Origin: Escherichia phage JM10 | Length of the DNA stretch: 64,000 nucleotides | Strand: one strand, 5' to 3' | Sequence record: PP400777 | Part shown: in pieces, positions 1 through 2,418 of the stretch | How the letters are laid out: each line of letters begins with the position of its first letter | Position numbering within the stretch: the first letter of the stretch is position 1 | Translations under genes and position numbers: made by a program | Notes under the pieces: generated by a model | What the model saw: the letters and a program-made list of their open reading frames with translations, nothing else | What the model was told of the DNA's origin: nothing | The model's database searches: none

Positions 1-44
1 GTAAGAACGCTTACTTTAGACGCGTCTACGTTAAAGGAATTTAA
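1..44 (+). CDS. 3' end of an upstream late structural gene (possibly major capsid protein gene 23), partial
   Basis: Frame 3 is open from the window edge to TAA at 42-44 and is followed by a GC hairpin; position upstream of segD/gene 24 matches T4. Frame 1 is also open, so frame and identity are uncertain. Confidence 0.25.
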   Translation, partial: KNAYFRRVYVKGI

Positions 45-73
45 TGCTTTAACGTTAAAATACATAACCTTAT

Positions 74-91
74 GGGAGACTCCGGTCTCCC
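74..91. terminator. GC-rich hairpin terminator (GGGAGAC-TCCG-GTCTCCC), likely bidirectional
   Basis: Perfect 7-bp inverted repeat with 4-nt loop between convergent genes, T-rich flank. Confidence 0.55.
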
Positions 92-101
92 ATTCTTGTT
101 T

Positions 102-761
102 CTATAGCTTAAAACAATCATCGCGTTCATTAATCCAATTTCTTATAGTTTTTGCGGATACGTTAAAGAATTCGGCAGCGTAATCGTAGTGGTTAAATTC
201 ATGGCCTTTAATAGAAATATCCACAAATACAAATTTCTTACCTTTATTAGAATTCTTTCTAATTTTTGCTTTATGCTCTTCTGATAGTTTTCTACCTTTA
301 AGATGAGAATCTCTATTTTTATAAAACTTTTTATTTGCTATAGATTTGTTTTCTCGATGTTCTTTAGATTCTTTAGAACCTAATTTCTTTTTAGATATTT
401 TGGCCCGAACTTCTTCAGTCATACCAGCTTTTGTCTTTTCGGATAACATCTCACGATACCCAGGTTCCTGTAAAGCTACTATAACAGGATTACCCTTGCC
501 GCCTAAGGCTGCATTATAAGTATCTGTTCTCATGACAAAAGCCTCGTCAACTAGTTCGGCTTCCTTAGCATACATCTCTTCAGATGTTTCGAAATTGAAA
601 AGGATTTCCTTTTTAAAATTCTCTAAGCCGTATTTCTTTATGGATTTTACTATGTTAACCCCGGAACCCATATAAGAATCGTTAACATCTGTAGTGGCAT
701 GGGCTCCAACATAAATCTTGTTATTAATGAGATTGGTTATTTTGTAAATTAAATAATTCAT
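102..761 (-). CDS. segD: GIY-YIG homing endonuclease, SegD-like
   Basis: 219-aa ORF; N-terminal YLIYKITNLINNKIYVGAHATTD matches the GIY-YIG module; lies between gene 23 end and gene 24 as segD does in T4. Confidence 0.6.
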   Translation of the reverse strand: MNYLIYKITNLINNKIYVGAHATTDVNDSYMGSGVNIVKSIKKYGLENFKKEILFNFETSEEMYAKEAELVDEAFVMRTDTYNAALGGKGNPVIVALQEPGYREMLSEKTKAGMTEEVRAKISKKKLGSKESKEHRENKSIANKKFYKNRDSHLKGRKLSEEHKAKIRKNSNKGKKFVFVDISIKGHEFNHYDYAAEFFNVSAKTIRNWINERDDCFKL

Positions 762-764
762 ATT

Positions 765-1031
765 TTATGCTGCTTTGACACGACGGTTGATGATATCACG
801 GAAGTCAATACGATTTTCTTGGATTTTCAGCCAGTTACCAGATTTGTCTTTGGTATGGGTAGAATATTCACCGTTCCACCAGAAGTCAGTTTCATAAGCC
901 AGGGCTTCGTATTTCTTAACCAATGCATTAACTGCATTACCGTTAGGATTGGTACCAAATTTTTCTACCAGAGCTTTGATGTCTTTGTCAAGGTTAGAAA
1001 GTGTGGTACGGATAAAGTTTAATTTGTTCAT
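765..1031 (-). CDS. hypothetical small protein co-transcribed with segD-like gene
   Basis: ORF track 765..1046; the second ATG (MNKLNF...) is preferred because AGGAGA lies 8 nt upstream of it, whereas the first ATG has no SD. Confidence 0.45.
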   Translation of the reverse strand: MNKLNFIRTTLSNLDKDIKALVEKFGTNPNGNAVNALVKKYEALAYETDFWWNGEYSTHTKDKSGNWLKIQENRIDFRDIINRRVKAA

Positions 1032-1060
1032 TTTTAATCTCCTCATGTTTTGATAGGTCT

Positions 1061-1090
1061 ATAGTAACACGACGCTTTTTGTGTGTAAAC
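1061..1090 (-). promoter_or_regulatory. T4-type early promoter (GTTTAC-N18-TACTAT) for the small ORF and segD-like gene
   Basis: Minus strand reads GTTTAC acacaaaaagcgtcgtgt TACTAT, about 30 nt upstream of the ATG. Confidence 0.55.
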
Positions 1091-1096
1091 CACTTT

Positions 1097-1104
1097 TATA
1101 AATA
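1097..1104 (+). promoter_or_regulatory. late promoter TATAAATA for gene 24
   Basis: Exact TATAAATA about 30 nt upstream of the gene 24 start. Confidence 0.65.
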
Positions 1105-1134
1105 AAATTATATTCTCAATAAGGAAAAAATGCA

Positions 1135-2418
1135 ATGAGTAAAATCCAAAAATTATTGCGTGAATCTACAACGTCTACTAGCAACTCAATTGGTCGCCCA
1201 AATCTCGTTGCTTTGACTCGCGCTACGACTAAATTAATATATTCTGACATTGTAGCAACACAAAGAACTAATCAACCTGTTGCTGCTTTTTATGGTATCA
1301 AATATCTTAACCCAGATAACGAATTCACATTTAAAACTGGTGCTACTTATGCTGGCGAAGTTGGATATGTAGACCGAGAAAAAATTACTGAGCTCACAGA
1401 AGAATCAAAAGTCACACTAAATAAAGGCGATTTTTTCAAATATAATAATATCGTCTATAAAGTGTTAGAAGATACACCATTTGCAGATATTCAAGAAAGT
1501 GATCTAGAATTAGCTCTTCAGATTGCAGTCGTTCATTTAAAGGTACGGTTATTTTCAGATGCAGCGGTAACAAGCAAATTTGAAAGCTCTGGTAGCGAAA
1601 TTTCTGATGCAAGATTCCAGATTAATAAATGGCAAACTTCAGTCAAATCTCGCAAACTTAAAACTGGTCTCACGGTTGAATTAGCGCAAGATTTGGAAGC
1701 GAATGGATTTGATGCCCCTAACTTCTTAGAGGATTTGCTTGCTACTGAAATGGCTGATGAAATTAATAAAGATATTCTTCAGTCTTTAATTACTGTATCG
1801 AAACGTTATAAAGTTACTGGAATTACTGACACCGGATTTATTGACTTGAGCTATGCATCCGCTCCAGAAGCAGGTCGTTCATTATATCGAATGGTGTGTG
1901 AAATGGTATCACACATTCAAAAAGAGTCAACTTATACTGCAACGTTTTGTGTAGCCTCAGCTCGTGCAGCTGCTATTCTTGCTGCTTCCGGTTGGTTAAA
2001 ACATAAGCCAGAAGATGACAAGTATCTTTCACAAAATGCTTATGGATTCTTGGCAAATGGATTACCTCTTTACTGCGATACCAACAGTCCATTAGATTAT
2101 GTTATTGTTGGTGTTGTAGAAAATATCGGCGAAAAAGAAATTGTAGGGTCCATCTTTTATGCTCCATACACTGAAGGAGTAGATTTAGATGACCCGGAAC
2201 ATGTCGGTGCTTTTAAAGTTGTAGTTGATCCAGAAAGCTTGCAACCGTCTATTGGTTTATTGGTTAGATACGCTTTATCAGCAAATCCTTACACAGTAGC
2301 AAAAGATGAAAAAGAAGCGAGAATAATTGATGGCGGGGACATGGATAAAATGGCGGGACGTTCAGACTTGTCTGTTTTACTCGGTGTTAAGCTACCAAAA
2401 ATTATTGTTGATGAATAA
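1135..2418 (+). CDS. 24: head vertex protein gp24
   Basis: 427 aa; near-identical to recalled T4 gp24 in sequence and length (...SIGRPNLVALTRATTKLIYSDIVATQRTNQPVAAFYGIKYLNPDNEF...). Confidence 0.93.
   Translation: MSKIQKLLRESTTSTSNSIGRPNLVALTRATTKLIYSDIVATQRTNQPVAAFYGIKYLNPDNEFTFKTGATYAGEVGYVDREKITELTEESKVTLNKGDFFKYNNIVYKVLEDTPFADIQESDLELALQIAVVHLKVRLFSDAAVTSKFESSGSEISDARFQINKWQTSVKSRKLKTGLTVELAQDLEANGFDAPNFLEDLLATEMADEINKDILQSLITVSKRYKVTGITDTGFIDLSYASAPEAGRSLYRMVCEMVSHIQKESTYTATFCVASARAAAILAASGWLKHKPEDDKYLSQNAYGFLANGLPLYCDTNSPLDYVIVGVVENIGEKEIVGSIFYAPYTEGVDLDDPEHVGAFKVVVDPESLQPSIGLLVRYALSANPYTVAKDEKEARIIDGGDMDKMAGRSDLSVLLGVKLPKIIVDE

Follow-up and report, generated by a model that had tools for sequence, protein, structure and literature searches.

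A SegD-type endonuclease gene behind a resident early gene between head genes 23 and 24 of a T-even phage

Introduction

How much of the minus-strand DNA that lies between two late head genes of a T4-like phage belongs to a mobile element, and how much was there beforehand? The question arises from the junction of genes 23 and 24 at the left end of a 64-kb stretch of Escherichia phage JM10, here called the window, whose numbering is used throughout. A preliminary description of this junction, made from the letters alone, saw a segD-like endonuclease gene with its own early promoter, a small partner ORF and a terminator that bounded the whole. A fresh reading of the window finds every one of these features at the coordinates given to it. 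What belongs to what is another matter. The account that I propose, and consider distinctly probable, is that a SegD-type homing endonuclease gene sits here as a bare ORF behind a resident early gene of 88 codons, so that neither the promoter nor the small ORF is to be counted as part of the mobile element.

The locus and its relatives

The features on which the argument turns are these:

1-44, plus strand: 3' end of gene 23 (major head protein), with its stop codon TAA at 42-44, from the JK45 annotation at the matching position
72-93, plus strand: intrinsic terminator hairpin of gene 23, called on this strand only; resident, outside the segD insertion
102-761, minus strand: predicted segD-type free-standing GIY-YIG homing endonuclease gene, 219 aa (phrog_314, TIGR01453, profile and fold matches to I-TevI)
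107 to about 775, minus strand: DNA absent from empty-site phages according to junction alignments, comprising the segD ORF and about 14 nt
765-1031, minus strand: resident early gene, 88 aa (phrog_6003; orf173 of JS98, orf166 of IME08)
1039-1044, minus strand: GAGGAG, the Shine-Dalgarno sequence for the 88-aa gene, whose ATG follows after 7 nt; kept in all lineages
1061-1090, minus strand: early-type sigma-70 promoter GTTTAC-N18-TACTAT, with TG at -15/-14, assigned to the 88-aa gene
1097-1104, plus strand: T4-type late promoter TATAAATA of gene 24, a pattern match kept in all compared phages
1135-2418, plus strand: gene 24 (capsid vertex protein), the right-hand neighbor, from the ORF list and the JK45 annotation

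The two minus-strand ORFs are separated by 3 nt and share a reading frame, and the early promoter that precedes them stands back to back with the late promoter of gene 24. Neither ORF arose by chance, since both have clear homologues: the 219-aa protein matches phrog_314 with E = 5e-54 and the 88-aa protein matches phrog_6003 with E = 1.5e-48. Nor is the region new. Over positions 1-1200 the identity to Shigella phage JK45, and to Escherichia phages AV109, AV114, AV115 and AV116, is 99.8%, and the JK45/AV genomes already annotate both ORFs, as 'homing endonuclease (segD gene product)' and 'hypothetical protein', so the segD gene of the window is one already annotated in published relatives. 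An endonuclease gene behind a small phage early gene is an ordinary arrangement for T4-like phages. The GC content of segD is 32.7%, against 37.7% for the window, and a search of the 64 kb found no second SegD-like gene.

The 219-aa protein

The larger ORF is predicted to encode a SegD-type, I-TevI-like GIY-YIG endonuclease, which is what the preliminary description took it to be. Besides its match to PHROG 314 ('homing endonuclease'), the protein is recognized by the PADLOC homing-endonuclease models and, over its full length, by NCBIfam TIGR01453 ('group I intron endonuclease'), the last at 57.4 bits, just over the curated cut-off of 56.05. Its Pfam matches lie below their gathering cut-offs (16.2 vs 22.6 for PF01541, GIY-YIG; 20 vs 25 for PF19835, SegE_GIY-YIG), and precomputed matches to PF19835, PF01541 and PF07460 are present on its close relatives. 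Within the T4 group the best full-length match is SegD at the 23/24 locus itself (T4, T6, TadeuszReichstein), with 58% identity over 100% of the protein. Other Seg-type proteins match only the N-terminal 40-60%.

Searched against the PDB as a single sequence, neither the 219-aa nor the 88-aa protein found a match. A profile built from 36 relatives of the 219-aa protein matched three PDB sequences, all of them I-TevI, with E = 5.6e-4 for the DNA-binding domain (1i3j, residues 147-214) and E = 0.0078 for the catalytic domain (1mk0). The alignment places the GIY and YIG motifs at the N-terminus, some 10-11 residues from each other, as L4-I5-Y6 and Y17-V18-G19, and Y6, Y17 and G19, invariant in the 36 relatives, fall on the I-TevI residues of the same numbers. 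E67 is aligned with E75 of I-TevI (position 75 of 1mk0, an E75A mutant) and N83 with N90, both invariant in the family alignment. The I-TevI segment that holds catalytic Arg27 is an insertion relative to the SegD family profile and has no aligned counterpart; in its place stand invariant H21, T23, D28 and Y30-M-G32-S33-G34, typical of the SegD/SegE subgroup.

The AF2 model (pLDDT 84 overall, above 88 over residues 1-80) leads to the same relative, and its first domain has the I-TevI catalytic fold, a three-stranded sheet with helices at its sides. Its top four PDB matches by Foldseek are domains of I-TevI and nothing else is credible: the catalytic-domain structures 1mk0 and 1ln0 are matched with TM 0.63-0.68, normalized to the target, and the catalytic and DNA-binding domains both with probability 1.00. 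The domain plan is an I-TevI-like catalytic domain at about 1-90, a helical, NUMOD3-like linker and a C-terminal helix-turn-helix DNA-binding domain at about 180-219.

Resident and inserted DNA

If the promoter, the small ORF and the hairpin traveled with segD, one would look for them in its company. They are found without it. SQ17 (a Mosigvirus) and MX01 and JS98 (Dhakavirus) have all three between genes 23 and 24, nearly identical to those of the window, and no segD. Records covering a query made from the empty site number 77, of which 37 have segD and about 40 do not. Comparison across these sequences shows that the promoter, the 88-aa gene and the hairpin are resident and pre-exist in phages that lack segD.

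Alignment of the occupied sites (window, JK45, UP19, IME08, 04086) with the empty ones (SQ17, MX01, JS98) places the left edge of the extra DNA directly after position 106 (...TTTCTATA|) and the right edge at about 775, within the last codons of the 88-aa gene. The empty site reads TCTATA-CTATGCAAT-CTTAAC, and in the occupied one CTATGCAAT is replaced by the 660-nt segD ORF and about 14 nt. The inserted segment, some 670 bp, thus gives the 88-aa gene a new stop and altered final codons: a small protein that ends in ...RRVKIA* at empty sites ends in ...RRVKAA* at occupied ones (...KAE* and ...KVEA* in other alleles), and several synonymous changes at 765-783 accompany it. The junctions are identical in Mosigvirus and Dhakavirus backbones.

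From these alignments I infer that segD came as an ORF only and brought neither a promoter nor a ribosome-binding site nor a terminator. In the event so pictured, the bare ORF would have entered a Mosigvirus-like T-even phage between the last codons of the 88-aa gene and the terminator of gene 23.

The 88-aa gene

The minus-strand ORF at 765-1046 can be read as 93 aa, or as 88 aa from the ATG at 1031. The shorter form, chosen in the preliminary description by its Shine-Dalgarno sequence, is favored because GAGGAG lies 7 nt upstream of that ATG and because the diverged homologue in AV112 has no in-frame ATG further upstream. Nor is the small ORF the N-terminus of segD in the wrong frame: in segD-less phages it ends at its own stop codon, and the two ORFs are separate.

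The distribution of the gene speaks against either role offered for it earlier, accessory factor or remnant. Members of PHROG 6003 occur in 132 phage records, most of them without this segD. Close forms are present in Dhakavirus, in some Mosigvirus and in Gaprivervirus phages, and other Mosigviruses, such as AV112 and AV118, have a form only about 35% identical at the same site and behind the same promoter. A form 41% identical is found as far away as the unrelated Acinetobacter phage ABPH49 (Vequintavirinae), where the small genes around it are unrelated and no endonuclease adjoins it. The gene is absent from T4 and most Tequatroviruses.

Searches with the protein itself say less about what it does. 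The AF2 model is confident (pLDDT 93) and consists of a helix, a second helix, a beta-hairpin and a final helix; the fold search gave no informative match, that of BFVD being to a member of its own family. There was no match in Pfam or PADLOC, and the one in NCBIfam, at 12.8 bits, is meaningless. Neither sequence nor fold searches found any similarity to SegD or to any nuclease. A word-indexed protein search returned 7 close relatives and an exhaustive HMMER search of 1.84 billion representatives gave 7 matches. Among the HMMER matches, two long proteins (P0129 and P0132) are repetitive and adhesin-like and share only a short DxSGNW-like motif, and a third (P0130) resembles a chimeric contig; all three are regarded as spurious. 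By its sequence and distribution the 88-aa gene is best taken as an independent, conserved early gene, neither accessory to SegD nor left over from it. It would be no partner of the endonuclease and would do nothing for it beyond supplying transcription.

Promoter, hairpin and expression

T4 early promoters have a GTTTAC-like -35 element, a -10 element of the form TAnnnT, 17-18 nt between them and an extended -10 TG. A match to such a consensus does not by itself rise above chance in this AT-rich DNA, where the scan gave 5 promoter-like sites and 8.6 were expected. Conservation carries more weight. Across six lineages (JK45/SQ17, JS98/IME08, UP19, AV112, VR7 and T4-type phages) the -35 element is kept (GTTTAC, or ATTTAC in T4), as are the -10 element (TACTAT, CATAAT or TATTAT) and the 18 nt between them, and TG at -15/-14 is kept in all but VR7. 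Since the hexamers and their spacing stay while the sequence of the spacer varies freely, more than chance is at work, and the early promoter at 1061-1090 is very probably real.

It is not, however, the endonuclease's own, as had been thought. The same promoter precedes the 88-aa gene in phages with segD and in those without it (SQ17, MX01, JS98) and so belongs to that gene. It is also the only recognizable promoter on the minus strand upstream of segD: a motif scan of minus-strand positions 1-1140 found neither the late motif (TATAAATA) nor a MotA-box middle promoter. Probably, then, segD uses the promoter of the 88-aa gene.

The hairpin stem described earlier, 74-80 paired with 85-91 around the loop TCCG, is present and can be extended to 72-93 (9 bp), yet it does not bound an endonuclease cassette. 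On the plus strand it is followed by the T-run TCTTGTTTCT; read on the minus strand, it gives way to AUAAGGUUAUG, which makes no U-run, and the scan called no minus-strand terminator. Because the T-run is on the plus strand only, the hairpin is to be read as the terminator of gene 23. It too is present in segD-less SQ17, MX01 and JS98, and it is 100% conserved in T4-like phages of Serratia and Enterobacter.

How might an ORF so poorly equipped be expressed? No Shine-Dalgarno sequence precedes the segD ATG. The stop codon of the small gene lies 3 nt from that start, and the junction TAA-AAT-ATG is identical in all four segD-bearing backbones. No RNA structure that would sequester the start was found (fold z-score 0.77). 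I suggest that segD would be transcribed by read-through from the early promoter of the 88-aa gene and, since only AAT separates the small gene's TAA from the segD ATG, that it may be translated by termination-reinitiation coupled to that gene.

Movement of segD between lineages

Relatives on two sorts of backbone allow the history of segD to be set beside that of its neighbors. When the JK45 group (Mosigvirus backbones mobillu, ATK47 and SQ17) is compared with the Dhakavirus phages UP19, IME08 and 04086, identity is 82-84% over the final 1 kb of gene 23 and 67-70% over the first 1 kb of gene 24. The N-terminal half of segD is 93-98% identical in the same comparison, and the C-terminal half, between UP19 and the JK45 group, 99-100%. 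Since segD is 93-100% identical between backbones that reach only 67-84% identity in genes 23 and 24, it must have moved horizontally; these identities show that its passage from one phage lineage to another is much younger than the divergence of the capsid genes on either side.

The tracts around the insertion are short. UP19 has a JS98-like backbone on both sides and, within it, a JK45-type tract from about position 11 to about 425. IME08 and JS98 form a near-isogenic pair, with 98-100% identity across 4 kb, and near the insertion their substitutions fall into just two tight clusters, at 26-66 and 765-777. The segD copies examined, seven in number, are all intact. Taken as sequence comparison, this pattern of identity within and around segD is what a homing endonuclease gene that leaves short co-conversion tracts would be expected to produce.

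The mechanism would run as follows. In a mixed infection the enzyme would cut relatives that lack segD near the junction of gene 23 and the small gene, and repair would then copy segD along with short tracts on either side. The carrier's own DNA would be shielded by the insertion and by the altered tail of the small gene. One observation counts against this: SQ17, which is empty, is the same as JK45, which is occupied, across positions 1-81, so a carrier would have no protection from sequence difference if the cut site lay there. Another bears on the tracts. MX01 has a Dhakavirus backbone with a JK45-type intergenic module and no segD, and therefore exchange at this locus is possible without the endonuclease; the breakpoint near position 11 may be a general module boundary.

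The locus had been called a known site of marker exclusion, and this finds no support in what has been written on it. Sokolov et al. (2018), in the only experimental study of SegD, reportedly found that the T4 enzyme does not initiate homing, to go by the title of the work. According to a 2010 review, it had not been determined whether segD is mobile, and the target was unknown (PMC2988022).

Alternative explanations

The most serious challenge to a homing account comes from the observations just given. Perhaps the SegD-type gene is real but no active homing element in these phages, its patchy presence and mosaic flanks having come about through ordinary homologous recombination at a module boundary, with the enzyme idle or in some other role, such as cutting competitors elsewhere. 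The title of the Sokolov study and the review's entries on mobility and target both suit this idea, and so do the exchange of the same intergenic module by MX01 without segD and the identical left flanks of SQ17 and JK45. I nevertheless think it unlikely. Recombination at a boundary does not readily explain why segD is so much more similar across genera than the genes beside it, why at least two genera share the insertion point to the very nucleotide, with short tracts of conversion closely around it, or why every copy examined is intact. Moreover, a strong and conserved early promoter lies directly upstream of the allele in the window, which differs from what the review describes for T4 (PMC2988022). 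By contrast, the arrangement first imagined, a self-contained mobile cassette of early promoter, accessory ORF (cofactor or endonuclease remnant), segD and terminator, is very improbable. That the two ORFs are co-oriented, nearly touching and in frame is what first suggests it, and segD of the T4 type does carry a promoter-like element in the equivalent position, one that empty T4-like sites lack. But the approximately 40 records that hold promoter, small ORF and hairpin without segD already refute it. It is hard to reconcile, too, with a diverged small-ORF homologue filling the site in AV112 and AV118 behind the same promoter, with another homologue in an Acinetobacter phage with no endonuclease beside it, with a T4-type segD that works without the small ORF, and with a small protein that resembles neither SegD nor any nuclease.

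The shared reading frame invites one further thought, that some ribosomes read through the TAA, so that part of the product is a fusion of the two proteins, an idea prompted by the in-frame TAA AAT ATG kept in all segD-bearing backbones. I find it still harder to credit than the cassette. Two ORFs fall in frame one time in three; the junction belongs to the inserted DNA, so that its constancy reflects common descent; and neither a read-through context nor an RNA structure (by the z-score above) is there to assist. A bare segD ORF behind a resident early gene thus remains the account I prefer. A bolder one would join to an early-expressed, actively homing SegD in the window the supposition that the JK45-type locus is ancestral and that the T4 form descends from it, the 88-aa gene having been lost. 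Taken together these make a quite doubtful proposition, somewhat more so than recombination without homing. Were it true, T4 segD would have been left behind an unrecognized early-type promoter, ATTTAC-N18-TATTAT, with a leader of the same 29 nt, and in the allele of the window read-through and coupling would express SegD early, against a target in the stop-codon region of the 88-aa gene, unlike the T4 endonucleases that have been described.

Whichever is right, the significance of the finding goes little beyond correct annotation. It does suggest a small correction, that in this lineage, and possibly in T4, segD stands behind an early-type promoter and is not transcriptionally orphaned. It also offers natural pairs of occupied and empty sites (JK45 or AV114 vs SQ17; IME08 vs JS98) in which the insertion is defined to the nucleotide, convenient substrates for asking whether any SegD enzyme homes.

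Comparison with known systems

Besides JK45, the Dhakavirus IME08 has segD and orf166 disposed in the same way. Its segD allele differs in length (223 aa) and is 90% identical, with most of the differences in the C-terminal, DNA-binding half. The GenBank annotations of IME08 and JK45 name the genes but are silent on segD being the inserted part and on the promoter being that of the small gene.

T4 SegD, which lies between genes 23 and 24 in T4, T6 and PP01, is alike in locus, antisense orientation, length class and I-TevI-like architecture. Its left junction, which follows closely on the gene 23 terminator, is related to that of the window, and the 58% identity between the proteins extends over their full length. 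A check against the T4 locus, suggested in the preliminary description, thus finds the same position and orientation but no 88-aa gene. Instead, segD of T4 stands directly behind the promoter-like ATTTAC-N18-TATTAT, with GGAG near its start and a 29-nt leader, the same length as the leader before the 88-aa gene in the window. Homology between the two leaders was considered and set aside, as the approximately 55% identity seen by eye is too weak in AT-rich sequence. The empty site of most Tequatroviruses, exemplified by RB51, is a bare spacer of about 85 nt that holds only the terminator and the late promoter of gene 24, without small ORF or promoter-like element. Since RB51 lacks that element, the T4-type insertion would be some 790 bp long and bring the element with it, whereas the insertion in the window is the ORF only.

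I-TevI, encoded in the td intron of T4, is the sole PDB relative of the 219-aa protein by profile and by fold, and like it has an N-terminal GIY-YIG catalytic domain, an extended linker and a C-terminal helix-turn-helix DNA-binding domain. The likeness stops short of identity: the sequences agree at only about 23% of positions, the Arg27 segment of I-TevI is replaced in the 219-aa protein, no zinc finger is evident there, and the segD of the window is free-standing, not intron-encoded.

Finally, there are the other seg genes of T4. SegA, SegB, SegC, SegE, SegF and SegG home with co-conversion of flanking markers. They are likewise encoded by free-standing GIY-YIG genes between conserved genes and are present in some phages and absent from others (PMC2988022). 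Several T4 seg genes have no translation initiation region of their own and abut or overlap an upstream ORF (PMC2988022), much as segD does in the window. Promoters specific to T4 endonucleases are middle or late and never early, none specific to segD has been identified in T4, and its transcripts are expected to be vanishingly rare (PMC2988022). In the window, by contrast, the only promoter upstream of segD is of the early type, and it belongs to another gene.

Module exchange at the genes 23/24 locus

There is a Dhakavirus, MX01, whose entire 23/24 intergenic module is of the JK45/SQ17 type: the terminator, the 88-aa gene and its promoter are all present (equivalent to about window 11-1135), and segD is absent. 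The left breakpoint, at window position about 11, is common to this phage and to the segD+ phages UP19 and 04086. That the breakpoint coincides in all three suggests a recombination boundary roughly within the final 10 codons of gene 23. JK45 itself is placed by the NCBI taxonomy under Tequatrovirus jaykay, and the phages closest to it in the 23/24 region (SQ17, mobillu, ATK47 and the AV-series) are classed as Mosigvirus.

Distant T4-like phages of Serratia, Enterobacter and Kosakonia conserve the hairpin and T-run of the gene 23 terminator (window 70-105) at 97-100%. JK45-type segD+ phages have TCCG as the hairpin loop; phages with an empty site and IME08/04086-type segD+ alleles have TTCG. 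Two MotA-box-like sequences, [AT][AT]TGCTT[TC]A, are found on the plus strand, both probably chance matches:

Window 43-51, plus strand, directly past the gene 23 stop codon
Window 265-273, plus strand, within segD and antisense to it

Structure of segD alleles and their neighbor

Across segD of the window and of the records L005, L007 and L008, three alleles are nearly identical in the N-terminal, catalytic half (window 102-430; 92-98% nucleotide identity), and in the C-terminal, DNA-binding half (window 431-761) they reach just 68-82%. The alleles are further separated by a 4-aa C-terminal indel (219 aa vs 223 aa). The type of left flank following the gene 23 stop codon tracks the C-terminal type of segD, an association that could reflect either linkage or adaptation to the target. 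The segD of T4_7t1, a laboratory T4 mutant clone, is annotated as two overlapping coding sequences (L013 401-1061) and is apparently frameshifted.

At window 759-767, the 88-aa ORF and segD lie in the same reading frame, separated solely by TAA AAT, so that read-through of the TAA would yield a fusion protein. The shared frame is probably chance, expected once in three. The 88-aa protein has a homologue, 41% identical, in ABPH49, an Acinetobacter phage of the Vequintavirinae (L012 2501-2767), where it lies among small, unrelated hypothetical genes. The family is predicted to have a small orphan fold (AF2 model, pLDDT 93), with no structural relatives found in the PDB or among viral structures.

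Comparison with Dhakavirus and T4

Gene 24 is present in the window as one copy, unlike in the Dhakavirus phages IME08, JS98 and UP19, which carry two tandem copies, 24a and 24b (L005 2642-4206, L006 1-1899, L008 2626-4190).

According to a 2010 review (PMC2988022), a segD-specific promoter could not be located in T4. T4 and T4-like phages carry ATTTAC-N18-TATTAT, with TG at -15/-14, followed by a 29-nt leader and then segD:

L004 (a T4-type phage) 1425-1502
L013 (T4_7t1) 335-402

This promoter-like element is missing from empty T4-like sites (RB51, L009). Upstream of T4-type segD, the element and its leader correspond to window 1031-1090, the element taking the position of the 88-aa gene's promoter.
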